Virus record (IMG/VR): IMGVR_UViG_3300025132_008118
Direction: 5' to 3' (one strand)
Length of the DNA: 64,000 nt
From: a virus
Every line of letters starts with the position of its first letter. The first letter of the stretch is position 1. Position numbers and translations under genes: made by a program. Positions 2,063 to 63,667 of this stretch are shown piece by piece. The notes under the pieces are model-generated. The model was not told the DNA's origin and made no database searches. It saw only the letters and a program-made list of their open reading frames with translations.

Positions 2063-3724
2063 ATGGCCGATGTTACAGTCTTAGAAGCTATATCTTTATT
2101 AACCAAAGTATCTGCTGATAATAGCAGCATGCTGAAGAAACTATCTAAACGTGTTGATAGTATTACACCTGGTAAGGGTTTAAAAAAGGAAAAAAAAGAG
2201 TTAGTAAAAAAGGCAGACCCGGTTATAGTAACTGATTTCGGTAAAGCTGCTGAAAAAGATTTAGCGATGCTAGCCGGAGATGCTGAAAAGGAAAGACAAA
2301 AAACTGAAACTGAAAAGAATAAAAATAATAATCTTTTAAAATTATTAGGTTTGGCAGGGGCTGCTGCTTTAGCGTTAAAATTTCTTTTTGATGGTGAAGG
2401 TTTTGTCGGTCTAACTCAAGGATTTCAAAGAGTTTATGGAAAAGTTGAAAAATTTGCAAAATCAGCAAAAGGGTTAATTGATGATATAGGTAAAAGATTA
2501 GGTACATTTTCTGATGATGTTGGAGCTAAGGTCGGTACAATCGTGGATGATGTAATGGCAAAAACTAGCACCTGGGCTGCTAAAGCTAAAGATGGTATTA
2601 AAAATGCCATGGATGATATTGGTAGAAGATTGGGTACTTTCGGAGACGATATAGCAAGAGGTGTTACAAATATTATAAATAGAGCATCTAGTATGGCTGG
2701 TAGAGTATCAACTGCGATGGCAAATACACCTGGAGCTTTCAGAAACGTCATGACTGGTGGTCGATCAGCGCCGAGAAGTCCAACATCTACGCCTAAGCCC
2801 AGGGCATGGTGGCAAAAAGCGGGGGACTTTGTATCTGATTCAGTTAGTACTGTTGGTAAAGGTCTTAAAACCGTAGGAGGTGCTATATCTGATACAGGAA
2901 GGGCAGGGATAGATTTCGTTGTGGACACGGGCGTCGCGGCTAAGGATTTTGCTAAAAATCAGATATTAGATCGCATATCAGCAGCATTTAAAATAATAAA
3001 ACCTCTTTCATTATTGAAGGGTGTAGCAAAAAGCCCACTTTTAGCACCAGCACTTGAATCATTCTTTGCTGGTAAAGATATTAATAATAATATTGATAGG
3101 TATTCTGCAGGAGAAATAGATAAAAAGGAATTAGATAATTTGGTCGGTGAACGTTTAATTAAAGCTATTACAGGTGTTGTAGGGGGAGCAGGTGGAGCTA
3201 TACTCGGTGGGATGTTAGGCGCAGTTGGAGGACCATTAGCATTTGTTGGAATGCTAGCAGGTGGAGTATTAGGGGATATAAGTGGTCGATTTATTGGTGG
3301 TTTAATTTCACAAGCATTAGGTTCTAAGACTGGATCAGTAGGAGAGTTTGCTTTAAGCTCACCTTTATTTACAGTACCACCTGGTTCAGGAGCTGCACAA
3401 TTTGATAAAGTACCTGAGGAAATTGATGATGGTATTATTACTAAGGACGGTAAAGTTATAAAACCAGATTCACAAGACACATTATACGCAATGAAAGATG
3501 GTGGACCTTTAGGAGAAGCGTTAAATAAAACGCCAAAAATGTTAGGTAAATTGATAGACGTTGAATATGATAGCTTAGCATTAATGAAAGAGCAAAATTT
3601 ATTACTTAGATCTATACTTGAAAAAACAGGTGCAGTTAACCCTGTTGGGCCTAATCAACCAAATCAAATTAAAAATTATGACCAGAGTGGTGATCCATTT
3701 AGATCACTACAAATGGGATATTAA
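2063..3724 (+). CDS. Tape-measure / gp29-like hub protein
   Basis: 553 aa, Ala/Gly-rich helical repeats and glycine-zipper hydrophobic stretches (GGAGGAILGGMLGAVGG); baseplate context. Confidence 0.5.
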   Translation: MADVTVLEAISLLTKVSADNSSMLKKLSKRVDSITPGKGLKKEKKELVKKADPVIVTDFGKAAEKDLAMLAGDAEKERQKTETEKNKNNNLLKLLGLAGAAALALKFLFDGEGFVGLTQGFQRVYGKVEKFAKSAKGLIDDIGKRLGTFSDDVGAKVGTIVDDVMAKTSTWAAKAKDGIKNAMDDIGRRLGTFGDDIARGVTNIINRASSMAGRVSTAMANTPGAFRNVMTGGRSAPRSPTSTPKPRAWWQKAGDFVSDSVSTVGKGLKTVGGAISDTGRAGIDFVVDTGVAAKDFAKNQILDRISAAFKIIKPLSLLKGVAKSPLLAPALESFFAGKDINNNIDRYSAGEIDKKELDNLVGERLIKAITGVVGGAGGAILGGMLGAVGGPLAFVGMLAGGVLGDISGRFIGGLISQALGSKTGSVGEFALSSPLFTVPPGSGAAQFDKVPEEIDDGIITKDGKVIKPDSQDTLYAMKDGGPLGEALNKTPKMLGKLIDVEYDSLALMKEQNLLLRSILEKTGAVNPVGPNQPNQIKNYDQSGDPFRSLQMGY

Positions 3725-8266: not shown

Positions 8267-8731
8267 ATGGATAATGTAGTTATAAAGTTTGTTAAAACGC
8301 ATGAAGATGCTAAATTACCTACTAAAGCTCATCAAGGAGATAATTGTTTCGATTTATATGCAGTGGAAGATACTGTAATTCCTAGAGGTACTTATGGTCC
8401 GGTAGATGATATTAAAATAGGTAGTGCAATTGTACCAGTAGGTATTACAGTTGGTTATATTTCAGAAGGATACGGCTTTGTTTTGAGACCTAAGTCAGGT
8501 TTAGGTTTTAAAGCTGGGTTACAACCTCATTTAGGTGAAATTGATAATGGGTATCGTGGAGATTGCGCAGTAAAAATGTATAATTTTTCAAATAAAGATT
8601 ATACCTATAATAAAGGTGATAAAGTAGCACAAATTAAAATAGAAAAAATTTATGATACTACAATTGAGTGGTCTGATAGTATTGAAGAGGCAAAACGTGG
8701 GGATGCAGGCTTCGGGTCATCAGGTAAATAG
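8267..8731 (+). CDS. dut: Trimeric dUTPase
   Basis: Motifs RPKSGLG, GEIDNGYRGD, KVAQ and C-terminal RGDAGFGSSG. Confidence 0.95.
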   Translation: MDNVVIKFVKTHEDAKLPTKAHQGDNCFDLYAVEDTVIPRGTYGPVDDIKIGSAIVPVGITVGYISEGYGFVLRPKSGLGFKAGLQPHLGEIDNGYRGDCAVKMYNFSNKDYTYNKGDKVAQIKIEKIYDTTIEWSDSIEEAKRGDAGFGSSGK

Positions 8732-8746
8732 GAACTTTGATATAAT
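8731..8746 (+). promoter_or_regulatory. GGAAC-N5-TATAAT promoter-like element
   Basis: GGAACTTTGATATAAT-agatt-ATG, the same geometry as the copies at 53.6-63.7 kb. Confidence 0.7.
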
Positions 8747-8751
8747 AGATT

Positions 8752-8859
8752 ATGGGGAAAGTAACAAGACAAAAGATAACCGAAAGAAAAGTAGGTAATG
8801 CGAAGGTGAGAAAGACGGTAACTGTAACAGTTACAAAGCCATCAAAAAGAAAAAAATAA
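8752..8859 (+). CDS. 35-aa basic peptide (MGKVTRQKITERKVGNAKVRKTVTVTVTKPSKRKK)
   Basis: Read by hand. The ATG is 5 nt after TATAAT, and the TAA overlaps the clamp-loader ATG (TAATG). Confidence 0.55.
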   Translation: MGKVTRQKITERKVGNAKVRKTVTVTVTKPSKRKK

Positions 8860-9773
8860 TGTTTAATAACTTATACGTTGAAAAGTATAGACCTAAAACA
8901 TTATCAGATTTGGTATTATCTGATAGTAATAGAAAGTATTTTGAATCTATTACCGAAGAAATACCAAATCTGCTTTTCGTTGGTACACCTGGTTTAGGTA
9001 AGACTACATTAGCTAGAATATTAGTAAATGATATATTGGAGTGCCAATATCTGTATATCAATGCTTCAGATGAAAATGGTATAGATACCATACGCTCTAA
9101 GGTAGTTGGCTTTAGTCAGACTAAGTCTCTCGATGGGAAACATAAAGTAGTCATACTAGATGAGGCTGACGGTATTACCATTGACGGGCAACGCGCACTA
9201 CGTAATACAATGGAGGAATACAGTAGTATGACTCGATTTATACTTACAGCTAACTATAAGCATAAAATTATACCTGCCATTCAAAGTAGAACTCAATTCT
9301 TTGATCTAACTCCACCGTTTGATGATGTTGTCAAACGTGTTATCGATATTGTAAAGCAGGAAGGTATTAAGATTGAAACTGATCAGAAACCTAATTTTGT
9401 AAATCTAATAAAACAAAGTTACCCTGATATTCGTAAGGTATTAAATAGTATTCAAAAAGCTACTATAGGTAATATCTTTACAGTTGATCATAGCGTTGAT
9501 AGTAAAGAGATAGTTAACGTTATCCACAAGCATATTGTATCTAAAGATTCTTTAAAACTTAGAAAGTATCTAATTGAAAACGAGAACGAGTTTCAGGGCG
9601 ATTATCATAACTTAATGAAGCAGTACTTAAATTATGTATATACTTCTAGTTTGGATGACAATAAAAAACGTCAATATATAGTGACTATTTCAGATCACAT
9701 GTATAAAGACGTATTTGTATTAGATAAAGAGATTAATGCTTTTGCATGCTGGGTTAATCTTGAGAAAATTTAA
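8859..9773 (+). CDS. Sliding clamp loader AAA+ subunit (T4 gp44 / RFC-like)
   Basis: VEKYRP, Walker A GTPGLGKTT, INASDENGID, Walker B ILDEAD, and IQSR sensor/Arg finger. Confidence 0.93.
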   Translation: MFNNLYVEKYRPKTLSDLVLSDSNRKYFESITEEIPNLLFVGTPGLGKTTLARILVNDILECQYLYINASDENGIDTIRSKVVGFSQTKSLDGKHKVVILDEADGITIDGQRALRNTMEEYSSMTRFILTANYKHKIIPAIQSRTQFFDLTPPFDDVVKRVIDIVKQEGIKIETDQKPNFVNLIKQSYPDIRKVLNSIQKATIGNIFTVDHSVDSKEIVNVIHKHIVSKDSLKLRKYLIENENEFQGDYHNLMKQYLNYVYTSSLDDNKKRQYIVTISDHMYKDVFVLDKEINAFACWVNLEKI

Positions 9774-11366: not shown

Positions 11367-11459
11367 AATATATTTATATTTATGTTGTCTAATAGTTTTT
11401 TCTATCTTTTTCCGGTGAAACTATATTAGTTTAAAAAAGTATCAGGTATAAATATTCAT

Positions 11460-52808: not shown

Positions 52809-53201
52809 ATGGAAAAGCCTATTACTTTCTTTCGCTCTTTTTTGGAAAATATTAATTTTGCTACTTTTTTCTTAGCAGCAGTAGGCGCATTAGCCGCCCT
52901 TTGGTTAAATAGTAATTATGTTTCGCAAGAAGTGTATGAGAAGGATCAACAAATAATTCAATTAAAAATTGAGAGTTTAGAAACAGAGACCCAAGCCTTA
53001 CGATTTATGGCTCAAACAAATCAAACTGAGATAAGAGAATTGTTACCATTGGTGGAAAAAATTGAAACATTAATAAGCAATTTTATAACACCAAGTGGTG
53101 ATGTTATTATAACAGAGAGTATGAAAGAGATGGAAGTTGATATTGCTGAAATAAAGAAAGATATCGAGTATATGAAAGCTCGATTATGGCCAACAGATTA
53201 A
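52809..53201 (+). CDS. Membrane-anchored coiled-coil protein
   Basis: Likely start MEKP at 52809 after TAAATA; one hydrophobic helix followed by a heptad-rich region. Confidence 0.55.
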   Translation: MEKPITFFRSFLENINFATFFLAAVGALAALWLNSNYVSQEVYEKDQQIIQLKIESLETETQALRFMAQTNQTEIRELLPLVEKIETLISNFITPSGDVIITESMKEMEVDIAEIKKDIEYMKARLWPTD

Positions 53202-53644
53202 GAATACAATTCTAAATAGATCTTAGTATATTTATCTTCAAAATCTCTTGCTTGTATTTCCATAGGATTTTTATAATACTTGTTAGTGTAATTTGCTGCA
53301 TCAGCCTCTGTATAATCTAATTTAGAGTCTTTTACTTTATCTAAGTTATCTTGAGCAAAATGACACAACTCATGAAAATAGGAACTAATATACCATTCCT
53401 TCTTCTTAGCTAAGGTACGTTTTGATGTTTTAGTTCCTATTTCCATTTCATTACATTCAAAGTAATAACCTGATGTATAACAATCTATAGTTTTAATTTG
53501 CAAATCATAGTTCCAGATCTTCCTAGTTCCTTTATATTCATTTAATATAAAATTTGTAAATCGTTCCAGTTCCTTAACCTTTACATTAACTGACTTAAAT
53601 AGTTCCTTTGCTTTCTTATTAAACTTACAGTTAACAATAATCAT
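53198..53644 (-). CDS. HExxH zincin-like protein
   Basis: YFHELCHFAQ and YYKNPMEIQAR; preceded by the GGAAC-N5-TATAAT element (53645-53666). Confidence 0.6.
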   Translation of the reverse strand: MIIVNCKFNKKAKELFKSVNVKVKELERFTNFILNEYKGTRKIWNYDLQIKTIDCYTSGYYFECNEMEIGTKTSKRTLAKKKEWYISSYFHELCHFAQDNLDKVKDSKLDYTEADAANYTNKYYKNPMEIQARDFEDKYTKIYLELYS

Positions 53645-53669
53645 ACTACTATTATATCACTGTTCCCAT

Positions 53670-53703
53670 AAAAAAAGATGCTCCCGTTTCCGGAAGCATC
53701 TTT
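53670..53703 (-). terminator. Rho-independent terminator
   Basis: Minus strand GATGCTTCCG-GAAA-CGGGAGCATC followed by TTTTTT. Confidence 0.85.
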
Positions 53704-55393: not shown

Positions 55394-55428
55394 AAAAGTC
55401 GTTCCTATTACAGGGGCGGCTTTTTTTT
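55394..55428 (+). terminator. Rho-independent terminator
   Basis: AAGTCGTTCCT-attac-AGGGGCGGCTT stem with G-U pairs, then a T-run. Confidence 0.75.
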
Positions 55429-55584
55429 GGGAACGTTCCTCTTTATATATAAATTTTTCTCGCGTCAAAAATTTTAAAAGGCATGGGGCCTCCCAAGGCC
55501 CGAGACCCGCTCTCTATATAGGAATTCTCCCACGGTAACTTCTCTCAGCGGGGTGGGTTGCTGCGCAGCAAAAGCTGCCGCAGA

Positions 55585-55617
55585 CAAAAAGAGGCCGCTC
55601 TATATAGAACGACCTCT
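55585..55617 (-). terminator. Rho-independent terminator ending the small-ORF array
   Basis: Minus strand AGAGGTCGTTCT-ATAT-AGAGCGGCCTCT followed by TTTT. Confidence 0.8.
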
Positions 55618-55645
55618 CCAACAACAACACACTATCTAATTAGAC

Positions 55646-55849
55646 CTACATTGCAGGCTCTAAAATGCTATCTATATAAGCTCTGGCTTTACTACTTAAC
55701 TCTACATCTGGGTCATCCATCATCCTAATTACTTCATCGGCATCTATACGATATTCGGTACCAGAGCGCTCACTATAAAGGATAAATCTCTTCTTATCGT
55801 AGTCAGTAAGCCCGTGGTCGGGGAGGTATATACGATACTTAGGCTTCAT
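55646..55849 (-). CDS. Small hypothetical protein
   Basis: 67-aa ORF coupled to the upstream ORF. Confidence 0.6.
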   Translation of the reverse strand: MKPKYRIYLPDHGLTDYDKKRFILYSERSGTEYRIDADEVIRMMDDPDVELSSKARAYIDSILEPAM

Positions 55850-55850
55850 C

Positions 55851-56138
55851 TTACTGGTTGCAGAAGGCTACCTTCTTCTCCATTTCGTATAGCTTCTTAT
55901 CGCCTGCAGTAATGAAATCGGGCTTGATGCCGAATGCCTCGCGCATGCGCTCGAGGGTATCAGCATAGTTATCATTGACCACGCCCATCACAGAGACCAT
56001 CTCTGGGTTGAACTGCTCGGAGAGGGACTCGATGAGAGCTAGCTTAGAGCTCTCGTTAGCGGCTGCACGGCAGATGACGTCGACGGCATTATATAGCTCG
56101 CCAACGGTTACGGTATCGGTGTTGTTTAGGTTATCCAT
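55851..56138 (-). CDS. Small hypothetical protein
   Basis: 95 aa; GGAAC-N5-TATAAT element upstream. Confidence 0.7.
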   Translation of the reverse strand: MDNLNNTDTVTVGELYNAVDVICRAAANESSKLALIESLSEQFNPEMVSVMGVVNDNYADTLERMREAFGIKPDFITAGDKKLYEMEKKVAFCNQ

Positions 56139-56422
56139 ACTACTATTATATCGCAGTTCCTCTTACTGGGGGCGCCCCCTTCGGGGGCTTAGCCGCAGAG
56201 GGGGTGGATTGAAATGGGAACTCAGATATAATTTAGATATGAGACCAGAGGGTCTGGGAAGGACTACCTCGAGGAAGGGGCCTCAGCGCCTGCGTTCCTC
56301 TTTCTTCCGGATTAAGGAACTGCCGTATAATTATATAGAGTGCGGAGACCCCTCACGTGTAGGCGTTTGCAGGAGGAGGAAAAATTTTGAGGAGATACTA
56401 ACCTTTATACAAATTCTCTCTC

Positions 56423-56779
56423 TCACCCGTTAAAGCATCCTGGCTTGACATAGTCATCATCATCCTCATCGGGTACCGGTAAGTTACAAGTTGGATCAGA
56501 TGCATCATACTCTAAGTACCATCCTCTGTCTTCGTCTTTAGCATTGTACTCGGCCACTTCATTAAATGACTCTGGTAACTTATATATCTCTGATGGCTCA
56601 TTGCCTACCTCTTCTGACCTCTTTAACATATGCGAGATCTGCGCTTTTAGCTCGTCGACTACCTCTTCCGGTATTGTAACCTCTCCTTTATAGTCATGCA
56701 TGATCTTTACCTCTAGAGTATTAACCAAGCATTCTAAGTGCCCTTGCAAGCATCCATATCCTTTAGCGTAATTGTCCAT
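56423..56779 (-). CDS. Acidic hypothetical protein
   Basis: 118 aa; one of the few genes here with an SD-like GAAGGAG upstream. Confidence 0.65.
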   Translation of the reverse strand: MDNYAKGYGCLQGHLECLVNTLEVKIMHDYKGEVTIPEEVVDELKAQISHMLKRSEEVGNEPSEIYKLPESFNEVAEYNAKDEDRGWYLEYDASDPTCNLPVPDEDDDDYVKPGCFNG

Positions 56780-56833
56780 CTCTTATATCTCCTTCTCTCA
56801 GCACAACGTATAAATTCTTACCATGTTTCAATC

Positions 56834-57019
56834 TTAGGTAAGCTTTAATAGATTTAATACCTCTTCACTTACATCGACATCAACTTGATTACTATTAGCA
56901 AATGCTACATCAGCTGATACTGGCCCTGACCTCTGGGTTGCTATATCAGTAAATATAAACTGACCGTCATTAAACGTCAGGCTATATGTCTTCTCTTCTA
57001 CTTCTTCTACTATATCCAT
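56834..57019 (-). CDS. Small hypothetical protein
   Basis: 61 aa; repeated element upstream. Confidence 0.65.
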   Translation of the reverse strand: MDIVEEVEEKTYSLTFNDGQFIFTDIATQRSGPVSADVAFANSNQVDVDVSEEVLNLLKLT

Positions 57020-57040
57020 ACTACTATTATATCACTGTTC

Positions 57041-57205
57041 CTAATTAAAGATTGCACCCAATAACAATATCACTGCTGCTATTATGGCCGAGCCCACTAC
57101 AATGCATGCTGAGAAGATTACATCATTGCCTCCCTTTACCAATTCACCATCTTCTTTACTACTTTGGTATTTTGTATTTTTCTTTCGTATTTTACTGTTT
57201 GCCAT
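57041..57205 (-). CDS. 54-aa membrane peptide
   Basis: Read by hand: MANSKIRKKNTKYQSSKEDGELVKGGNDVIFSACIVVGSAIIAAVILLLGAIFN. Confidence 0.55.
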   Translation of the reverse strand: MANSKIRKKNTKYQSSKEDGELVKGGNDVIFSACIVVGSAIIAAVILLLGAIFN

Positions 57206-57301
57206 AACGCTCTTTATGTTTATAAAGGTACTGTACTATACTTTACCTCTTACTTTTATTTAAAAATTACCTCTTTTTACTTAAAATCTAACTCTTTTTG
57301 G

Positions 57302-57658
57302 TTAGTTCTCTCTCTTATAATGGTCACGAGGTCTTTCAAATTGCTTGGAAAGCTTATCCTTTTGCTCTAATCTCTTGAAGATACCGTATATATTCTCGTC
57401 CGTATAGCCATCTTTCTTTAGTGCATCGATTACTCTTCCGGCTGGTACGTATGCATATATCGGCTTATCGTACGTCGGATCATCTGCCCATTCCTTCAAT
57501 AAGTCCTCTCTTACTCGAAAGCCTCTCTTATCAAACACTGCTACCTCTACTTGAGTATAAGGTCCTTCATCGTCCTTTGGATAGCAGTAATGAAACTCGG
57601 AGGCCTGGATAGAGATCTCTCCATCTTTATAAGGTATTGGCATATTCAAATCTTTCAT
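57302..57658 (-). CDS. Hypothetical protein
   Basis: 118 aa; repeated element upstream. Confidence 0.7.
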   Translation of the reverse strand: MKDLNMPIPYKDGEISIQASEFHYCYPKDDEGPYTQVEVAVFDKRGFRVREDLLKEWADDPTYDKPIYAYVPAGRVIDALKKDGYTDENIYGIFKRLEQKDKLSKQFERPRDHYKREN

Positions 57659-57665
57659 ACTATAA

Positions 57666-57836
57666 TTATATCAAAGTTCCTAATACTTTATCGGCATCTA
57701 AGTTAACTGAAACGTATGGCTTTTTACTCCATTTGAAAGCTTCAGCATTACTTAGCGGTATCTCATTTCTAGTTCTATTGTTAACTAAAACAAAACCAAA
57801 CATCAGATTAAAACTTAAGTTGTATTCATTTTCCAT
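57666..57836 (-). CDS. 56-aa hypothetical protein
   Basis: Read by hand: MENEYNLSF...DKVLGTLI; its stop lies inside the next element's TATAAT. Confidence 0.6.
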   Translation of the reverse strand: MENEYNLSFNLMFGFVLVNNRTRNEIPLSNAEAFKWSKKPYVSVNLDADKVLGTLI

Positions 57837-57877
57837 ACTACTATTATATCTAAGTTCCGTAAAAAGGTTTGAGCATT

Positions 57878-58267
57878 TTATAGAGTGCTCACCTCTTGAC
57901 TCACCTCGGATTTATTATATTGTGTCGGGTGGTGCGAATTTTCTAGATAGGCCTTTACTGCATCAAATGCATCATAGCTAAAACCTCCTACATGCCAGTT
58001 AAAGATTCCTTTCCGGCAGATTGAAGCATCATAAGTCTTCCAATCATAAATCGTAGCAGTAACGTAAGGGTTTTCGTTATCAGTAGTCTCAAACTCTAAG
58101 GTCCACTCAGTAGTTACCTTACCATCGTCAGAGGGCTCATAGTAAGTAGGCTCACCAAAAGCCTTTACCAAGTCATCATACGTTGCTTTCAAATAGGAGC
58201 TTCCAACTAAAGAAGTTCCTGAAGTATTAATCGATTGCGAATTTCTTACGTTAATTATCTTGCTCAT
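57878..58267 (-). CDS. Conserved phage hypothetical protein
   Basis: GTSL...ATY..LV.AFGEP...DGKV..EW...TIYDWK...WHVGG, a pattern familiar from large phages. Confidence 0.7.
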   Translation of the reverse strand: MSKIINVRNSQSINTSGTSLVGSSYLKATYDDLVKAFGEPTYYEPSDDGKVTTEWTLEFETTDNENPYVTATIYDWKTYDASICRKGIFNWHVGGFSYDAFDAVKAYLENSHHPTQYNKSEVSQEVSTL

Positions 58268-58274
58268 ACTAATA

Positions 58275-58511
58275 TTATATCACAGTTCCTGTTCTGATTC
58301 TTCCGGAAGGATCATACCATCGTGCTGCTGGTTGCTTTGTAGCAGTATTTAAGTACTCTGCATTTTCCTCTTCTAAGAATGATTTATAAAACTCTGCTAC
58401 CTCATCTTCAGAAAGGTAACGTAAAAGCGATTCAAGTACATACTTATTAGTCAAGATGCCATCGTCGATAGCTTCTAGGATTTGATTAGTGGTTTTTCTT
58501 GCTGTGGTCAT
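58275..58511 (-). CDS. Small hypothetical protein
   Basis: 78 aa ending GTVI*, which is the next element translated. Confidence 0.65.
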   Translation of the reverse strand: MTTARKTTNQILEAIDDGILTNKYVLESLLRYLSEDEVAEFYKSFLEEENAEYLNTATKQPAARWYDPSGRIRTGTVI

Positions 58512-58532
58512 AGCTATATTATATCACTGTTC

Positions 58533-58712
58533 CTAAGAGGCATTGTTAAAGAATTCTCCGGAAGAAATCATAAGTTCCTTCTCGGCTGCAGCAGTAAAAT
58601 GAATACCTGCTTCATAATGCTCCTCCACATCCTCAAAAGGAATCAAATCGCCATCCTTAAACGAGATGAACTCTCCATTTTCGGTAACGTCTACTGTATC
58701 AAAAGGGCACAT
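58533..58712 (-). CDS. 59-aa acidic hypothetical protein
   Basis: Read by hand: MCPFDTVDVTENGEFISFKDGD...FFNNAS. Confidence 0.5.
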   Translation of the reverse strand: MCPFDTVDVTENGEFISFKDGDLIPFEDVEEHYEAGIHFTAAAEKELMISSGEFFNNAS

Positions 58713-58714
58713 AA

Positions 58715-58891
58715 CTAAAAGGGTAGTTCTAGAGGTTTTAGATCCAAGATTGAATCCTCGATGTTGTCTAGACGCTCTATTGATACCTGATGCTCGCCTC
58801 CGTCTTCATCCATAACGTATGCAAGCCCTCTTTCGGTATCGATTTCTAAAACCTCTACCCAATTTTGCTTATCTAATGTTGCTGTTTTCAT
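58715..58891 (-). CDS. 58-aa hypothetical protein
   Basis: Read by hand: MKTATLDKQNWVEVLEIDTERGLAYV...LELPF; repeated element upstream. Confidence 0.6.
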   Translation of the reverse strand: MKTATLDKQNWVEVLEIDTERGLAYVMDEDGGEHQVSIERLDNIEDSILDLKPLELPF

Positions 58892-58915
58892 ACTATAATT
58901 ATATAGTAGTTCCTC

Positions 58916-59299
58916 TTACATTGCAGCTGCATGATCCGGATACTCTTCATCAGAGTAATCAGTCGGGTATTTTCCGTCATAAATTTTCTCAATATCTAAA
59001 CCAAACCTCTCAAGCTCATCCTTCTTATCGTAATCATACTGAGCAGCAACAATACTTACTGCATAACTTCTTTCAGCTCCAACTTCAGCATAAGGATAAA
59101 CTTTATGAAAAAATTCAGTATCCCAATAACTTAACATCTCGAACAAAGTTTCCTTTTCAAAAGTATCCTGAATATGAATAAACCTTCTCATAGCTTTTAC
59201 ATCTTTAGTAGCTACTATGTTTATCATTCTAGAGTAACGATTAACATCCTCAAGTTTAGAGTTAATCGATTCGGTAAGTTGCATTATCAATTTATTCAT
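58916..59299 (-). CDS. Hypothetical protein
   Basis: 127 aa; repeated element upstream. Confidence 0.7.
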   Translation of the reverse strand: MNKLIMQLTESINSKLEDVNRYSRMINIVATKDVKAMRRFIHIQDTFEKETLFEMLSYWDTEFFHKVYPYAEVGAERSYAVSIVAAQYDYDKKDELERFGLDIEKIYDGKYPTDYSDEEYPDHAAAM

Positions 59300-59320
59300 A
59301 TCTATATTATATCACCGTTC

Positions 59321-59569
59321 CTAACTCCAATGAGAGTAGCTGTAAGGCTGTAAAGCGGCTCCAGGCAACGTGTAGCCTAGCGGTCGCTTGACCTCCTCTT
59401 GCGGTAAAGAATTAAGACTTACGTCTGCTTTAACTGAGAAGAACGTCGTCGAGAGCTTATAATCCTGCGCCTGCTCTCTAGTAATATCGAGGCACTCTCC
59501 AGTACGAGTATTAGTCAATTGGTAGAGATTGCCGTAGCCTTTGTAATCGATAATATATTTAATTTTCAT
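59321..59569 (-). CDS. Small hypothetical protein
   Basis: 82 aa; repeated element upstream. Confidence 0.65.
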   Translation of the reverse strand: MKIKYIIDYKGYGNLYQLTNTRTGECLDITREQAQDYKLSTTFFSVKADVSLNSLPQEEVKRPLGYTLPGAALQPYSYSHWS

Positions 59570-59601
59570 ACTACAATTATATCACAGTTCCCTTTTCCGG
59601 A

Positions 59602-59946
59602 TTAGTACAACCCAAATACGAGCTCTGCATCTACTTCATTGCAAGGAGCTTCTAACTCCTTCCAGCCGAAGGACTCACACAACCACTGCGTACCTTCCAC
59701 CTCAACTACATCCCCTACTGAAAGAGAATAGTTATCAAGAGCTCTAAACTCTTGAGCAATAGAACGTTCCCAATCTTCGAGGAGCTCCTCAGGAGCATTC
59801 AAGATATGGAACATCTGCTCTGCTCCTTCCTTTCCGGACTTTACTTCCTTAGAGGAAGTCTTATAAACTTCCGTACGAGTTCCTTTATAATCAGCACCAT
59901 CGCCGAATTGATCTCGTGTACTTGTTGGTCGAATAATTCTTATCAT
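59602..59946 (-). CDS. YodL-like domain protein
   Basis: SLSVGDVVEVEG..WLCESFGWKEL resembles the YodL C-terminal pattern. Confidence 0.45.
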   Translation of the reverse strand: MIRIIRPTSTRDQFGDGADYKGTRTEVYKTSSKEVKSGKEGAEQMFHILNAPEELLEDWERSIAQEFRALDNYSLSVGDVVEVEGTQWLCESFGWKELEAPCNEVDAELVFGLY

Positions 59947-59967
59947 ACTACTATTATATAACGGTTC

Positions 59968-60393
59968 CTAAAAATTTATAACGAGAGAATTTGCTATATC
60001 AGCAGGAGATTCAAACTCATAGTTATTCACTGCATTTTCTTCAGCTTTTTCAGCCTCGTATTGTGCATTAGCCCTTTCGATGCATTCAGATGCAAGGCGG
60101 TCCCACTCTTCAGCAGTCTCATCTGACCAATTAGTCCAACGAGGACGAATGCCATTTTCAGACTTATAGCAGTCCATATACTCTTCCCAAGCCTTAGCTT
60201 GGTCCCACTCGGCAGGAGTCAGGCAGCGCTCACCTTTGGTGTAATGCTCGCAATAGTGAAGAATATCAGCTTCATCATATGAAGCATAACCGCGAAACTC
60301 TCCTTCCGGAGCAGCTTCTGCCCAAGCTTTTGACTCGGCACATAATGCGTTAACGTGATTGCGAAGATCTTCTGTAATAGTAATGTTTTGCAT
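59968..60393 (-). CDS. Hypothetical protein
   Basis: 141 aa, YMDCYKSENGIRPRW motif; repeated element upstream. Confidence 0.7.
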   Translation of the reverse strand: MQNITITEDLRNHVNALCAESKAWAEAAPEGEFRGYASYDEADILHYCEHYTKGERCLTPAEWDQAKAWEEYMDCYKSENGIRPRWTNWSDETAEEWDRLASECIERANAQYEAEKAEENAVNNYEFESPADIANSLVINF

Positions 60394-60415
60394 ACTACTA
60401 TTATATCAAAGTTCC

Positions 60416-60511
60416 TTAAAGATTACCAATTAACCACCAAATTATAAAACATAATAGACCAGCAGATAAAGCTGCTGATACTACCATTAAAATTTCAGAT
60501 AAGTATGCCAT
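60416..60511 (-). CDS. 31-aa hydrophobic peptide
   Basis: Read by hand: MAYLSEILMVVSAALSAGLLCFIIWWLIGNL. Confidence 0.45.
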   Translation of the reverse strand: MAYLSEILMVVSAALSAGLLCFIIWWLIGNL

Positions 60512-60517
60512 GTGTTC

Positions 60518-60679
60518 CTATTTAAATGTTCTACTAAACTCAAAGACTATAACAGCTACGCAGAGAAAATGCGCAAATGTTCCGGGATCGACCATTCCTA
60601 ATCCAATATCGTTACCTGCCGCAGCAAGATTTAACAATAGTGTTGCTACTACGAATACCTTATATAAATGTTCTAACAT
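60518..60679 (-). CDS. 53-aa membrane peptide
   Basis: Read by hand: MLEHLYKVFVVATLLLNLAAAGND...VIVFEFSRTFK. Confidence 0.5.
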   Translation of the reverse strand: MLEHLYKVFVVATLLLNLAAAGNDIGLGMVDPGTFAHFLCVAVIVFEFSRTFK

Positions 60680-60685
60680 AATTTA

Positions 60686-60961
60686 TTATGAAAAGCAATC
60701 GACTGCTTCCTCAATATCGTTATCAATCTCGTTATTCAATCGAGCTCGTTTTGCTTCCATCTCCTCATTTACATCTTCGAGATACATTTTATAATCATCA
60801 ATCTTGTCGTTGATATGATCAACATCACCCATCAAGTCATCAGCCATTCTTCGAATGCGCCCATCCTTTGCAAAGGATTCAGCCCACATCAATCGATCCA
60901 AAGTTTCACTTACTATGTTTTGAAACTCAGACGCTTCCTTTATTCTCTTCTTAATCTTCAT
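60686..60961 (-). CDS. Small coiled-coil protein
   Basis: 91 aa; repeated element upstream. Confidence 0.65.
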   Translation of the reverse strand: MKIKKRIKEASEFQNIVSETLDRLMWAESFAKDGRIRRMADDLMGDVDHINDKIDDYKMYLEDVNEEMEAKRARLNNEIDNDIEEAVDCFS

Positions 60962-61007
60962 GTACTTATTATATCACTGTTCCCCTATGAGAGCCACGTT
61001 TAGTTAA

Positions 61008-61032
61008 TAAAAAAGGGTAATGTGATACCCTT
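61008..61032 (-). terminator. Rho-independent terminator
   Basis: Minus strand AAGGGTA-TCACAT-TACCCTT followed by TTTTATT. Confidence 0.65.
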
Positions 61033-61106
61033 ACGTTTAATGTACCAAATTGAAGAGCCCGAGGCTGGACCTAATCTCACCGAAATGCCTCGAGCCCTTC
61101 TTTTTG

Positions 61107-61334
61107 TTAAGCTGATACAATCTTATTGTTACGCAATGCTCGTGCCATTTCACGAGGCGCAACCTTCTCCCATGTTCCGGAGAACTGATTCTTCATTACC
61201 AGACGCTTTGCCTGATGACCTACGACGGAGAATGCTCCTGTTACTGGATTTCGCTCAAGCATTACGTTGAACAAATTCGGGTTACGAGTTGCAGTTTCTA
61301 CACCACGACGACTACTTTTACTTTTATTTTTCAT
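61107..61334 (-). CDS. Small basic protein
   Basis: 75 aa; repeated element upstream. Confidence 0.65.
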   Translation of the reverse strand: MKNKSKSSRRGVETATRNPNLFNVMLERNPVTGAFSVVGHQAKRLVMKNQFSGTWEKVAPREMARALRNNKIVSA

Positions 61335-61357
61335 AATTTAATTATATCACTGTTCCT

Positions 61358-61603
61358 TTATAAATCTTTATCTTCTAATTCTAAACCTGATTCAATAATC
61401 ATTTTGTATGCCATTTCGAAATGACGTATTAAATCTTTATCGAAATACTGCTTATATGCAACTAATTTTGTATTAGGAGATTTAACTCTCATATTATAAT
61501 AACGATAGAACTCTTTGTGCTCAATAGTTTCCTCAAAGTTAAAATGATCTATGTAAGTATGGTCTCCTCTTTTCTGAACTAACTTATAATCTCCTGCGTA
61601 CAT
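61358..61603 (-). CDS. Small hypothetical protein
   Basis: 81 aa, coupled to the upstream ORF. Confidence 0.6.
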   Translation of the reverse strand: MYAGDYKLVQKRGDHTYIDHFNFEETIEHKEFYRYYNMRVKSPNTKLVAYKQYFDKDLIRHFEMAYKMIIESGLELEDKDL

Positions 61604-61806
61604 TAGAACTGCTTCATTACACTACGACATCCTCTACGAGGTACATAATACTTTTTATTACGAGCATAGCTTTCAGCAGACATAACCTGCACACTACCAC
61701 CAGTCTTATGATCAAACGTCATAACGCCTCGTACCTTTTCAGTAATACGAGGAGGAGGATTATCTAATCCTAATATCTTTCTAACCTCTTTACTTTTAAT
61801 TTCCAT
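61603..61806 (-). CDS. Small basic hypothetical protein
   Basis: 67 aa; repeated element upstream. Confidence 0.6.
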   Translation of the reverse strand: MEIKSKEVRKILGLDNPPPRITEKVRGVMTFDHKTGGSVQVMSAESYARNKKYYVPRRGCRSVMKQF

Positions 61807-62065
61807 ACTCTTATTATATCATCGTTCCTAAAAAAGAGTTTAATTAAATCTAACAGGCCCTTCCCATTCTGCTATGGGTCTTCCTCATTTATTTCAGGAG
61901 GGGTTCGGGCTTTCTCCGCCGGAGTCCGAAGACTTTAATATTCCATTGGCATAGTATTTAATTAAACTGCAGAAAATCAAAGGTATTCGCCTGGTCGGGC
62001 TTTTTCGAAGGAATACCAGCTCCGTTTTTCTTGTTTATTTCGTGCACGCTTGATCGTCATCAAAG

Positions 62066-62191
62066 TTATGTAAAAAGAACTGCTATTAAAGCAAATAGAT
62101 AGATAATATTTATGTCTCTCCCGCTATAAAAATCTAAAACTAAGCTACCTGCTAATGCTAAAATTGTGAATGCTTTGAATAATCTCATCAT
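62066..62191 (-). CDS. 41-aa membrane peptide
   Basis: Read by hand: MMRLFKAFTILALAGSLVLDFYSGRDINIIYLFALIAVLFT; repeated element upstream. Confidence 0.55.
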   Translation of the reverse strand: MMRLFKAFTILALAGSLVLDFYSGRDINIIYLFALIAVLFT

Positions 62192-62203
62192 ACTACTATT
62201 ATA

Positions 62204-62395
62204 TCACTGTTCCTCTTTTAACCAATCTTTTTTAAACAGCTCTTTATCAATAGCTTCTACAACCTTTACTGCATCCTTCATCGTTTTCCATCTAGAGCCC
62301 CATTTCTGGCAAGATGGTCCATTATTCAAATCAGCATTTTCCTCCCATTTATCTTTACAAGCTTGTACATATTTTTCTAGAATATTGTTACTCAT
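62204..62395 (-). CDS. Small hypothetical protein
   Basis: 63 aa, coupled to the upstream ORF. Confidence 0.6.
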   Translation of the reverse strand: MSNNILEKYVQACKDKWEENADLNNGPSCQKWGSRWKTMKDAVKVVEAIDKELFKKDWLKEEQ

Positions 62396-62619
62396 TACCG
62401 TTCTAAAATTACAAAGTCGCCAAACTCTTTATCAAAAACATTCAATAGGTTTTCATAATCCCCTGACTGCATATCATTGAGAATTTTATCTATTTCAGGT
62501 TTATCATAACACAACTCTTTTGCAAAACGTTTAGCTGTACCCATTAACGCAAATGCATTACCATCAGGACCAGTTAGGTCAATTACTATTTCATGAGGTA
62601 TAGTTTTTTGTCTAATCAT
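62395..62619 (-). CDS. Conserved phage hypothetical protein
   Basis: IDLTGPDGNAFALMG...M.SGDY..LL..F..EFG, a pattern familiar from many phages. Confidence 0.75.
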   Translation of the reverse strand: MIRQKTIPHEIVIDLTGPDGNAFALMGTAKRFAKELCYDKPEIDKILNDMQSGDYENLLNVFDKEFGDFVILER

Positions 62620-62820
62620 TTACAATAAAATTAGCGTTATAATAAAACCTATCCCTATTGTTAGGAAGAGTACTGCGAATGCTAAATCTTTTACCTTCTG
62701 ATCTTCATAGCTCGCAGCTCCTAAGTATACTTTTTTCTTTTTTCTTTTCATACTATCACTATATATTCGTTCACCCTTTACGCCGTGATAAACAATTCTA
62801 TTTCTTTTATAATATCCCAT
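62620..62820 (-). CDS. Small protein with a C-terminal TM helix
   Basis: 66 aa, basic N-terminus and hydrophobic end; repeated element upstream. Confidence 0.6.
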   Translation of the reverse strand: MGYYKRNRIVYHGVKGERIYSDSMKRKKKKVYLGAASYEDQKVKDLAFAVLFLTIGIGFIITLILL

Positions 62821-62846
62821 ACTATAATTATATCTAAGTTCCTAAA

Positions 62847-62923
62847 TGGTGGGCCCGGTCGGACTTGAACCGACGACCAAACGATTATGAGTCGTTTGCT
62901 CTGACCAACTGAGCTACAGGCCC
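62847..62923 (-). tRNA. tRNA-Ile2 (anticodon CAT, lysidine type), CCA encoded
   Basis: GGGCCTG/CGGGCCC acceptor stem, discriminator A + CCA, D-arm AGCTCAGTTGGTCAGAGC, anticodon arm AACGA-CTCATAA-TCGTT, GTTCAAGTC T-loop. The arm resembles bacterial Ile2 rather than Met. Confidence 0.9.
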
Positions 62924-62933
62924 ATACATTTTA

Positions 62934-63443
62934 TTAACAAAATCTAGCAAATTCGAACTCCGATTGCTCTAGAACGTTCTTAACCTTAAGCTCAAAAACA
63001 CTTTCAACCTTACGAGTTGGTCTCCATTCTTCACCAACGTTATCAATCATCAAACCATTCTTTACAGTAAAGACATGACCTGATACTAATACCAAATAGA
63101 TGCCTTCAGCAAAGTCCTTAATGAATGACTTAACTGTCTTCTTGCGAGCAATTACTTCACCATGAAGCTTATAAGTATTCGTTACCTTATCTTCGGGAAG
63201 AACGGTAATATCAAACTCAACGTCATCAATCTTCTGAGTTTCGCCTTCAAGCTTTTTAGCAGTATAATTCATCTTCTTACAACCCTTTTTATCTTCACGT
63301 TTAAAGGTCTCTTTCAAATAACTATGAGCTGAATCATAGTCAACATCAAGTGCAGTTGTGAATGCACGTACCGAACAATCATTCGTTTCCGAACCAGATT
63401 TATCAGTCGATTTAATTACTTCTTTTGAATTTATATATTGCAT
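62934..63443 (-). CDS. Conserved phage protein with NDC..RA / H / D motifs
   Basis: ETNDCSVRAF.TAL...Y and YLVLVSGHVFTVKNG..ID. Confidence 0.65.
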   Translation of the reverse strand: MQYINSKEVIKSTDKSGSETNDCSVRAFTTALDVDYDSAHSYLKETFKREDKKGCKKMNYTAKKLEGETQKIDDVEFDITVLPEDKVTNTYKLHGEVIARKKTVKSFIKDFAEGIYLVLVSGHVFTVKNGLMIDNVGEEWRPTRKVESVFELKVKNVLEQSEFEFARFC

Positions 63444-63482
63444 TTCTTATTATATTAGGTTAATATTTCTGTTACTCTATAA

Positions 63483-63641
63483 TTATATCACTGTTCCTCT
63501 TCGGGAATTCTTCTTCTCCCATATCGATAATGCTTTCTGCACATCATTATTGGAAGACGATAAGAGACGCTTAAAGACTTCCCATGTAGGTTTAGGATCT
63601 TTAATAGACTTCCATGCTTGCATTCTTTCTTCAGGTGACAT
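63483..63641 (-). CDS. 52-aa hypothetical protein
   Basis: Read by hand: MSPEERMQAWKSIK...RRGTVI; its stop lies inside the next element. Confidence 0.55.
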   Translation of the reverse strand: MSPEERMQAWKSIKDPKPTWEVFKRLLSSSNNDVQKALSIWEKKNSRRGTVI

Positions 63642-63667
63642 GCTATAATTATAGCACTGTTCCTATT

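Follow-up and report, generated by a model that had tools for sequence, protein, structure and literature searches.

Results

A block of small early genes with a common promoter element

The window, i.e., the whole 64-kb stretch of DNA that was analyzed, is from a distant T4-like phage, uncultured and marine, and the array described here is its block of small early genes. An exact search recovered 22 GGAAC-N5-TATAAT sites in the window, whereas shuffled sequence gave 0.07 on average and never more than 1; the perfect TATAAT in 22/22 follows from how the search was defined. The minus strand carries 18 sites between 56145 and 63663 and one more at 53651-53666, and the three plus-strand sites are at 8731, 56217 and 56316. 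These are the copies listed in an earlier note on this DNA (18 minus-strand copies in 7.5 kb, with others at 53645-53666, 8731, 56217 and 56316), and the fixed 5-nt gap between GGAAC and TATAAT that it described was found in 22/22 sites, with zero sites at any other spacing from 0 to 12. Its distance of 5 to 6 nt from TATAAT to the ATG applies to 20 sites: 6 nt in 19/22 and 5 nt in one (8731), the ATG being missing at the expected place in 63497(-) and 56316(+). About twenty early gene starts in this phage have a GGAAC promoter directly abutting the start codon.

With +1 placed at the A of the ATG, GGAAC occupies -22 to -18 and TATAAT -12 to -7, and the window sites have T at -1 and A at +1. 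TG is found at -15/-14 in 15/22 sites and G-14 in 19/22. As noted earlier, there is neither a consistent -35 element nor a Shine-Dalgarno sequence: upstream of the box only the directly adjoining 5' A is conserved, and none of GGAG, GAGG or AGGA is present 4 to 14 nt ahead of these ATGs. The hallmark of leaderless genes, a Pribnow box 6 to 8 nt from the start codon and no Shine-Dalgarno sequence, is thus seen at the N6 sites. The information content of the 5-bp box is roughly 10 bits.

Individual cassettes

Following the minus strand from the right-hand end of the array, the first promoter and start codon (63639..63663; GGAAC-N5-TATAAT-N6-ATG) belong to ORF 63483-63641 (52 aa). The promoter at 63473..63497 has no ATG at +1; after it lies a second TATAAT-N5-ATG, which belongs to ORF 62934-63443 (169 aa, phrog_3754), and tRNA(CAU) comes next at 62847-62923. 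The promoter and start at 62818..62842 head ORF 62620-62820 (66 aa); ORFs 62395-62619 and 62204-62395 come next and are regarded as translationally coupled because the gaps are 0 and -1 nt. The promoter and start at 62189..62213 serve ORF 62066-62191 (41 aa), followed by a 259-nt GC-rich non-coding stretch, and those at 61804..61828 serve ORF 61603-61806 (67 aa), the most widely conserved early ORF, to which ORF 61358-61603 is coupled. Next are the promoters and starts at 61332..61356 (ORF 61107-61334, 75 aa) and 60959..60983, the latter with a terminator-like hairpin just upstream (61013-61032) and heading ORF 60686-60961 (91 aa), after which ORFs 60518-60679 and 60416-60511 follow with 6-nt gaps.

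Further promoters and starts on the minus strand are at 60391..60415 (ORF 59968-60393, 141 aa) and 59944..59968 (ORF 59602-59946, 114 aa), where the first G of GGAAC is overlapped by the TAG stop codon of the upstream ORF. They continue at 59567..59591 (ORF 59321-59569, 82 aa), 59297..59321 (ORF 58916-59299, 127 aa), 58889..58913 (ORF 58715-58891, 58 aa, with ORF 58533-58712 after a 2-nt gap), 58509..58533 (ORF 58275-58511, 78 aa) and 58265..58289 (ORF 57878-58267, 129 aa), where the upstream ORF stops within TATAAT, 7 nt ahead of the ATG. The units at 57834..57858 (ORF 57666-57836, 56 aa), 57656..57680 (ORF 57302-57658, 118 aa) and 57017..57041 (ORF 56834-57019, 61 aa) follow. The next ORF, 56423-56779, is without its own promoter and has an AAGGAG Shine-Dalgarno sequence. 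The last unit of the array, at 56136..56160, heads ORF 55851-56138 (95 aa), with ORF 55646-55849 after a 1-nt gap. There are only about three terminator-like hairpins for 19 minus-strand units.

The isolated minus-strand copy (53642..53666) starts ORF 53198-53644 (148 aa, HExxH motif, phrog_10499) and is preceded by a strong terminator hairpin at 53674-53703. On the plus strand, the copy with N5 to the ATG (8731..8754) starts a basic ORF of 35 aa (8752-8859); the stop codon of this ORF overlaps the start codon (ATG) of gp44, the clamp-loader gene (8859-9773). The opposite-strand copy within the array at 56217..56241(+) is followed by a GC-rich, hairpin-rich stretch that is probably non-coding, its core being conserved in the related genomes G003 and G001, and the second opposite-strand copy, which lacks an ATG (56316..56331, +), is followed by a GC-rich non-coding stretch partly conserved in G003. 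The earlier description of the copies as heads of single-gene cassettes is corrected only for the plus strand, where 56316(+), and probably 56217(+), head non-coding stretches; the GGAAC element is therefore not a translation signal.

Conservation and distribution of the element

The N5 spacing recurs in related uncultured phages, with 55/58 GGAAC boxes so spaced in G001, 23/25 in G002 and 31/33 in G003. The inverted box is not enriched, and in the window and these three genomes no one-mismatch variant of the box is found in a real promoter context. In a wider sample of 118 related contigs, 348/464 TATAAT-N6-ATG sites carry the box, and GGAAA, at about 8% of sites, is the only variant. The 348 sites have T at -1 in 91%, T-15 in 74% and G-14 in 71%, and a flat base composition upstream of the box.

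Among the 23 window ORFs tested, 13 have homologues in G003, in a mostly collinear order apart from two displacements; the others are lineage-specific. Orthologous cassettes of the window and G003 share 45-80% amino acid identity, with GGAAC, TATAAT, their spacing and the start codon retained and one ortholog having GTG at +1; the upstream flank is unalignable and the TG is sometimes lost. The 5 bases between box and hexamer and the 6 after the hexamer drift by lineage (AGTGA, TCTGA, CCTGA), and GGAAC and TATAAT are fixed.

The box is absent (0 copies) from the complete sister phages G004 and G005, compared with 55 in G001, and the promoters of these two phages are instead of the form TTGAC-N16-TATAAT-N6-ATG. 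Box-bearing phages form two separate clades on the capsid tree, and few ORFs are common only to GGAAC-bearing genomes. No bacterial genome exceeded chance for the composite motif: a scan over 185,579 species gave 22 scattered matches, and two phage-like contigs were matched as well. Four Verrucomicrobiota genomes have a clear TGnTATAAT-N6-ATG leaderless signature with no GGAAC, C at -18 being present in 6/80 sites.

Two promoter classes sorted by gene function

The genes behind the GGAAC box are small ORFans without known domains, with a median length of 89 aa in G001. Polymerase, SSB, helicases, UvsX and gp55 are headed by promoters of a separate class, TTG-N16-TATAAT, and the two classes are mutually exclusive in architecture. 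Orthologs can swap class: gp44 follows a GGAAC promoter in the window and a TTGAAC-N16 promoter in G001. One G001 promoter consists of TTGATT, 6 nt and GGAAC-N5-TATAAT; the spacer from TTGATT to TATAAT is 16 nt, and the GGAAC box therefore fits inside a sigma70 spacer.

Late genes have TAAATA-N5-ATG, one base nearer the ATG than TATAAT-N6-ATG, and both arrangements give sharp spacing spikes in four genomes; the same analysis of Thermus phage phiYS40 gave no TAAATA-N5-ATG spike. The T4 late box spans -13 to -6 (PMC2988020), so that the one-base difference between N6 and N5 fits the geometry of sigma70 (-12 to -7) versus the gp55 late box and therefore supports a start at the ATG. Both sigma70-type and gp55-type promoters appear to be positioned for leaderless starts.

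Search for a protein that reads GGAAC

The unusual sigma factor or phage activator proposed in the earlier note found no supporting gene: the only phage sigma-like genes detected were gp55, the late factor, and an RpoD-like sigma that a single relative, G002, carries; its DNA-reading residues are canonical, and G001 lacks it. There was no match to MotA or AsiA (PF09158, PF09010) in G001-G004, with the T4 control scoring 7e-71 and 2e-43, which agrees with the contrast drawn earlier between GGAAC and the T4 MotA box, the two differing in sequence and position. No ECF-type region 4 was above the cut-off in the related genomes, and the G001 TTG-class ORFs without homologues in GGAAC-less phages contained no DNA-binding domain.

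Several known promoter classes do not fit the sites. A T4 middle (MotA) promoter replaces the -35 element with another upstream box beside a sigma70 -10 element, as here; however, the MotA box has another sequence centered near -30, and positions -30 to -24 of the GGAAC sites are at background frequencies. The box agrees in sequence with the GGAAC-type -35 of an ECF sigma promoter, but it stands 5 rather than 16-17 bp upstream of the -10 element, which is TATAAT rather than CGT-type. The GGAAC-N5 arrangement resembles the GGCAC-N5 of sigma54 (-24/-12) promoters, but TATAAT stands in place of the -12 GC. The array also differs from PeSL cassettes, which have a strong sigma70-like promoter with -35 and -10 and a stem-loop terminator, in its lack of a -35 element and its scarcity of hairpins.

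Discussion

The explanation that we favor, while giving it about as much doubt as belief, is that the GGAAC sites are pre-replicative promoters read by the host primary-sigma (sigma70) holoenzyme, with GGAAC replacing the -35 element. Sigma region 2 would read the perfect TATAAT at -12 to -7 and sigma region 3 the TG at -15/-14, and the invariant GGAAC at -22 to -18 would supply the contact usually provided by the -35 hexamer. The likeliest route to GGAAC would be the polymerase itself, by a holoenzyme surface lying opposite the spacer; a general host factor would be the alternative. The temporal class is most likely immediate-early. Transcription would start at the A of the ATG, and the earlier suggestion of an extended -10 promoter starting at or next to the ATG gains in silico support from the geometry, the prevalence of T at -1 (91%) and ortholog conservation. 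An mRNA starting there would therefore be leaderless and translated from its 5'-terminal AUG, and we propose that the need of each gene for a 5'-terminal AUG is why nearly every gene has its own promoter. Genes lacking a promoter would be reached either by being joined to the preceding stop codon or by a Shine-Dalgarno sequence.

The closest precedent for an element at -22 to -18 is the Z-element of the T7 A1 and A2 promoters, whose reader is the RNA polymerase core: the element acts through the beta' zipper and can replace the -35 element given a strong -10 (Yuzenkova et al. 2011, PMC3173786), and a natural promoter class relying on it has been proposed (PMC3173786). Host polymerase might contact GGAAC in a similar manner. 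Both are 5-bp spacer elements of phage early promoters with a strong -10. In T7 A1, 4 bp separate the element from the hexamer, versus 5 bp for GGAAC, and the Z-element sequences AACCT and AACAT have only AAC in common with GGAAC, offset by 1-2 bp. GGAAC is also far more invariant than the degenerate Z-element, for which only modest effects and a loose consensus are seen and for which PMC3173786 states no consensus; this is a counterpoint to a Z-like reading. The extended -10 (TGnTATAAT) promoters of sigma70 likewise have a perfect -10 and no -35, with TG at -15/-14 as in most GGAAC copies, but the GGAAC promoters add an invariant upstream box, and their TG is less conserved than GGAAC and is lost in some orthologs.

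The middle and late genes of phiYS40 are reportedly leaderless, with the -10 element abutting the ORF. Leaderless -10 elements abutting ORFs are found in Deinococcus-Thermus and Actinobacteria (PMC12340547, PMC6028130). The GGAAC promoters resemble these systems in having the -10 element 6-8 nt ahead of the start codon, no Shine-Dalgarno sequence, and the TG of -35-less phage promoters; they differ in belonging to a T4-like phage and to an early class with a GGAAC box.

Some observations are counterpoints to reading by the host holoenzyme. The distribution of the box among phages is patchy, the composite motif is above chance in no bacterial genome, the four Verrucomicrobiota genomes have leaderless TGnTATAAT-N6-ATG promoters without GGAAC, and the two function-sorted pre-replicative classes hint at a class-specific regulator.

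A phage-encoded protein that binds GGAAC and activates transcription, docking beside RNA polymerase at -20 and substituting for the sigma region 4/-35 contact, is possible, although we consider it doubtful. Such a protein would be either delivered from the capsid with the DNA or made from the TTG-N16-TATAAT promoters, and would act in a manner like sigma appropriation but with no relation to MotA/AsiA; on this view the GGAAC promoters would form a temporal class of their own. Region 4 of ECF sigma factors classically recognizes GGAAC, and this favors a dedicated reader, as do the rigid spacing and roughly 10 bits of the invariant box, the two mutually exclusive, function-sorted classes, the tracking of the box with phage lineage and its lack of enrichment in any bacterial genome searched. 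However, no candidate protein was found in the related genomes: MotA, AsiA and ECF-type region 4 are all below cut-off, the RpoD-like sigma of G002 reads canonically and is missing from G001, the relevant TTG-class ORFs of G001 show no DNA-binding domain, and few ORFs are exclusive to GGAAC-bearing genomes. Small ORFan arrays are, moreover, normally expressed first, before any phage protein exists. Stated more generally, we tentatively entertain a novel protein, either of the phage (possibly injected with its DNA) or a general factor of the host, that docks on RNA polymerase beside sigma region 3 and takes the place of the -35 contact. If this were true, it would represent a new bipartite promoter type, a box at -20 plus a -10, and an entire clade of abundant marine T4-like phages would have a private early-transcription channel, coupled to leaderless translation across the genome.

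It is improbable that GGAAC is an operator within plain extended -10 promoters, to which a later phage or host protein binds to shut off the early genes together. The box does lie between -35 and -10, classic repressor territory, one common box would permit coordinated shut-off, and the TG and perfect TATAAT of most window copies could suffice for activity; yet many copies in G001 and G003 without TG or a -35 element keep GGAAC (GGAAC-ACATT-TATAAT, GGAAC-GGTCT-TATAAT), and there a bare -10 would be weak. The mutual exclusivity of GGAAC and -35 classes suggests that GGAAC does the work of the -35, and here too no candidate binding protein was found.

Conservation of the box mainly as a 27-bp recombination or homogenization module, a PeSL-like junction in which GGAAC has no transcription role of its own, is very improbable, even though the window and G003 differ by whole units in partly rearranged order and PeSL repeats mediate shuffling in T4-type phages (PMC2839356), because neighboring bases should then be conserved too, yet these drift while GGAAC and TATAAT are fixed in hundreds of sites, and because the copy at 8731, away from the array, stands ahead of a replication gene. 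The PeSL (promoter-early stem-loop) units of the T4-type phages RB49 and phi1 (Arbiol et al. 2010, PMC2839356) are similar in placing an early-promoter unit before each ORFan of a hyperplastic region that differs by whole cassettes. Each PeSL is about 100 bp and combines a -35 element and AT-rich upstream DNA with a stem-loop terminator and a Shine-Dalgarno sequence, whereas the GGAAC unit, at about 27 bp, lacks both a -35 and a Shine-Dalgarno sequence and in most cases has no stem-loop. On the favored reading, the repeated 27-bp unit may also mark the junctions between which whole cassettes vary from one related phage to another.

Results

An exact search found 22 GGAAC-N5-TATAAT sites in the 64-kb window, for which dinucleotide-preserving shuffles gave a mean expectation of 0.07 and a maximum of 1. 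Eighteen of these sites lie on the minus strand at 56145-63663, another minus-strand site is at 53651-53666, and three are on the plus strand at 8731, 56217, and 56316. When box-to-hexamer spacings of 0-12 were scanned in the window, none but 5 was found. The gap from TATAAT to the ATG is 6 nt in 19/22 sites and 5 nt in one, and the ATG is missing after two copies, 63497 (-) and 56316 (+). Alignment of the window sites yielded the consensus a-GGAAC-wGTGA-TATAAT-AGTAGT-ATG, with TG at -15/-14 in 15 of the 22 and G at -14 in 19. On the 5' side of the box only the adjoining A is conserved in this alignment and there is no -35 element; no Shine-Dalgarno-like tetramer was found before the ATGs of the window sites. 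The earlier note had reported the counts, coordinates, 5-nt spacing, ATG distance of 5-6 nt, and lack of a -35 element and Shine-Dalgarno sequence, and this observation is confirmed as written. GGAAC is neither avoided nor enriched in the remainder of the genomes.

The hexamer is a perfect sigma70 -10 element, with the TG exactly at the extended -10 position. Because the ATG follows TATAAT by six nucleotides and the sigma70 -10 element occupies -12 to -7, the A of the ATG would be +1. Start sites prefer a pyrimidine at -1 and a purine at +1, and the T directly 5' of the ATG, present in 91% of 348 sites from 118 related contigs, fits that preference. The late and structural genes of the window carry (A/T)TTAAATA 5-6 nt before the ATG, without a Shine-Dalgarno sequence; examples are at 11447 (+), 17532 (+), 54435 (-), 39343 (-), and 11378 (-), and late-type starts are at 2063, 3762, 23506, 27710, 28196, 46517, 48688, 48733, 50715, 52767, and 54103. 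These sites resemble the gp55-type late promoters of T4, in positions suited to leaderless starts. Since the T4 late box occupies -13 to -6 (PMC2988020), the form (A/T)TTAAATA-N5-ATG that precedes these genes would again put the A of the ATG at +1, and the one-base offset between the early and late classes is what the two polymerase geometries would predict. Sharp spacing spikes for TATAAT-N6-ATG and TAAATA-N5-ATG are found across the window and three complete relatives, the latter spike occurring in G001 as well as in the sister phages G004 and G005, which are devoid of the box.

The element is not a translation signal, because two copies have no ATG and the plus-strand copies head GC-rich, probably non-coding stretches. 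Orthologous cassettes of the window and the related phage G003 share 45-80% amino acid identity and have retained GGAAC and TATAAT along with the two spacings and the start codon, with the flank 5' of the box unalignable and the TG lost in some; one ortholog has GTG in place of the ATG at an unchanged position. The promoter and leaderless reading of the array is well supported in silico, and so is the earlier proposal of an extended -10 promoter starting transcription at or next to the ATG, given the geometry, the T at -1, and the ortholog conservation. By these predictions, the phage lineage appears to use leaderless messages for nearly every gene, whether early or late.

Three phages have in common, within the minus-strand array, two GGAAC promoters on the opposite strand that are separated by approximately 100-150 bp (plus strand, 56217-56430 in the window; L255 of G003, 9043-9385; L209 of G001, 3133-3460). 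The stretches behind the pair have a common core, AGCCCnAGGGGTTGGnGAGnACT, in all three phages, and a second block, GGAGGAG-A5-TTTT...ATACAAATTCTC. An Rfam search of these stretches returned no family, and their consensus folds, from three sequences only, are weak. Other GC-rich, hairpin-rich non-coding stretches lie within the AT-rich early region at 55400-55650 (-) and 61829-62065 (-); they may represent small RNAs or terminators.

Between 53.2 and 63.7 kb, 19 of 28 minus-strand ORFs have their own GGAAC-N5-TATAAT-N6-ATG unit. Most of those without one begin -1 to 6 nt from the preceding stop codon, suggesting translational coupling, and a clear AAGGAG Shine-Dalgarno sequence is present at one. 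ORF 57041-57205 (-) has no unit and begins 96 nt from the preceding stop; ORF 62934-63443 (-) begins 39 nt from it and has its own TATAAT-N5-ATG. Upstream ORFs often have stop codons that run into the box (TAG|GAAC) or even into TATAAT, and there are only approximately three terminator-like hairpins in the array. A leaderless design would place each AUG at a 5' end, and we infer that one promoter per gene would be needed because each AUG must be 5'-terminal.

Small ORFs without known domains are the usual content of the hyperplastic early region of T4-type phages. The array ORFs encode 41-169 aa, no Pfam domains were found in them, and their PHROG matches are all of "unknown function". The early ORF 53198-53644 (-) (phrog_10499) contains an HExxH motif (FHELCHF), suggesting a small metallopeptidase, and the first 200 bp of its coding strand hold six GGAAC pentamers, far above expectation. 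The array also contains a tRNA with anticodon CAT at 62847-62923 (-), which may be a tRNA-Ile2 (lysidine); an initiator-type tRNA(CAU) was rejected on the basis of its G1:C72 pair and an anticodon stem without a run of three G:C pairs.

A second, canonical pre-replicative class, TTGA-N16-TATAAT-N6-ATG, lacking both TG and GGAAC, is shared by the window and G001, a complete relative of 221 kb. In G001 it precedes the genes for DNA polymerase, SSB, two helicases, UvsX, an exonuclease, gp55, gp44, QueE, and others (median ORF 214 aa), and the GGAAC class precedes small ORFans and two tRNA enzymes (median ORF 89 aa). On orthologs, the two predicted classes can be interchanged. The window gp44 gene lies behind the 8731 GGAAC promoter via a coupled 35-aa ORF, and its dUTPase neighbor has TTGAAT-N16; gp44 of G001 has TTGAAC-N16. 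The intervening ORF, 8752-8859 (+), is very basic (MGKVTRQK...KPSKRKK) and ends in a TAATG overlap with the start of gp44. In one promoter of G001, TTGATT is followed after 6 nt by GGAAC-N5-TATAAT, and because the spacer is then 16 nt the box is compatible with a sigma70 spacer.

Judged from its genes, the window is an uncultured, distant T4-like phage. It encodes a T4-type major head protein (phrog_138, 1e-86), a portal, a baseplate hub, and a gp44 clamp-loader homolog; the capsid shares 33% identity with cyanomyovirus capsids, the range over capsid and portal being approximately 30-33%. No megablast match to the window was found among phages that would indicate a close cultured relative. The capsid has more than 599 relatives in IMG/VR, where at least 118 stretches contain the motif followed by ATG. 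There are 55 box copies in G001, 23 in G002 (80 kb), and 31 in G003 (19 kb), with 0 for the reversed-pattern control in each, and 0 copies in the complete sisters G004 and G005, whose capsids are 73-75% identical. The small-ORF arrays of G004 and G005 use TTGAC-N16-TATAAT-N6-ATG, likewise placed for leaderless starts, with a conserved aaCTTCCc often directly before the -10 element. The conserved aaCCCaACTTCCCn block, immediately 5' of TATAAT, is found together with TTGAC and a 16-nt spacer at 218-229 kb in G005 and at 692 and 216905 in G004 (loci L232-L233, L211, and L221); in arrays of this kind, aaCCCaACTTCCCn is thus a putative spacer element distinct from GGAAC. Among 464 TATAAT-N6-ATG sites of related loci, the exact box position holds GGAAC in 348, GGAAA in 35, and AGAAC in 5; the few one-mismatch boxes of the window and G001 are all outside promoter contexts. 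The capsid tree places the GGAAC-bearing contigs in two clades with strong support (100/100 and 100/99), the first of which has as its sister a likewise well-supported clade (97/95) of GGAAC-less genomes. A link to 7-deazaguanine DNA modification was rejected, since DpdA-kinase-QueF occurs in GGAAC-bearing and GGAAC-less phages alike.

Discussion

Our best reading is that the host holoenzyme would recognize the GGAAC promoters, because in phages that carry no polymerase in the virion the unmodified host holoenzyme normally transcribes the early ORFan arrays, and because the box matches the Z-element in position. Counted from the A of the ATG as +1, the box occupies -22 to -18, matching the Z-element of the T7 promoters A1 (AACCT) and A2 (AACAT), which works via the beta' zipper of the core polymerase and can replace the -35 element given a strong -10 (PMC3173786). 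Such -10/Z promoters, using a spacer element and not a -35, were proposed as a natural class in 2011 from engineered T7 promoters (PMC3173786). Against this reading, however, the box is far more invariant than the loose Z-element and is lineage-specific, the two promoter classes are sorted by function, and the composite motif was above chance in no bacterial genome searched.

The alternative raised in that note, an unusual sigma factor or a phage activator acting on GGAAC, gained no support from the gene search. Profiles of sigma70 regions 2 and 4 detected only gp55 in the related genomes and, in G002 alone, an RpoD-like sigma of 300 aa, encoded inside its GGAAC array (L254, 17823-18725 (+)). 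This protein has no region 1.1 but has canonical regions 2-4, with canonical residues for -35, TG, and -10, and is absent from G001, G004, and G005. No activator emerged, neither AsiA nor MotA being detected in G001-G004 by searches in which the T4 control scored. Few ORFs are confined to GGAAC-bearing genomes, and no DNA-binding domain was found among the candidate lineage-specific genes or in the G001 TTG-class ORFs without homologs in GGAAC-less phages. Recognition by sigma54 or by an ECF sigma was rejected, since the geometry fails for both.

Expression of nearly all genes from leaderless messages is unusual among T4-type phages. Several features of the array have precedents: extended -10 early promoters are a known element, the spacer element sits in the Z position, and the predicted leaderless expression has counterparts in Deinococcus-Thermus, Actinobacteria, and Thermus phages. 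The cassette organization resembles that of the promoter-early stem-loop (PeSL) of T4-type phages (PMC2839356), but the unit has shrunk to approximately 27 bp and has neither stem-loop nor Shine-Dalgarno sequence. What appears to be new, besides this shortened unit, is the invariant GGAAC box in place of the -35 element, and leaderless placement that, as predicted here, reaches even the late promoters, of gp55 type, in a T4-like lineage. Neither the GGAAC box nor a leaderless T4-type lineage was described in any paper that our literature search found. In publications on related marine myophages, early promoters were predicted by BPROM only, and there is no mention of the box or of leaderless starts (PMC7029224, PMC9004378); a pelagimyophage survey reported failure to find middle and late promoters (PMC7029224). 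The hundreds of natural sites with an invariant box at the Z position and the -35 gone are a ready test set for reading of the spacer by RNA polymerase or a partner protein. With the start codon taken as +1, gene starts can be corrected and small genes uncovered in these phages, which are abundant in the ocean.

If the phage lineage is leaderless, the ribosomes of its host should be proficient with leaderless mRNA, and this gives a usable clue to the host. Weak hints converge on Verrucomicrobiota. The best named relatives of the G002 RpoD-like sigma are verrucomicrobial RpoD proteins (72-76% identity), and phage-like contigs are assigned to Terrimicrobiaceae and Opitutae MAGs. Contigs resembling the array were also seen in MAGs of Flavobacteriaceae as well as Opitutae. 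The capsid gene is found in MAGs of Bacteriovoracaceae, Terrimicrobiaceae, a proteobacterium, and an archaeon, an inconsistent binning. Within the phylum of the Terrimicrobiaceae MAG, 4/81 genomes (G056, G062, G077, and G083; loci L278-L357) have a strong TATAAT-N6-ATG signature, as tTGnTATAAT-N5-C-ATG, with counts of 23:0, 23:1, 40:0, and 37:0 versus control; T-17, T-15, and G-14 are present at 75-82% of sites and C-1 at 91%, and there is no GGAAC signal in the four. A subset of this phylum thus seems to use extended -10 promoters abutting start codons. The SAR11 phage HTVC008M (Pelagibacter phage, NC_020484; loci L238-L245) has no GGAAC and no TATAAT-N6 spike. It does have a modest TAAATA-N5-ATG spike, 14 sites versus approximately 3 at other spacings, often occurring as TAAATAGTAnTATG, and some of its late genes may also be leaderless.
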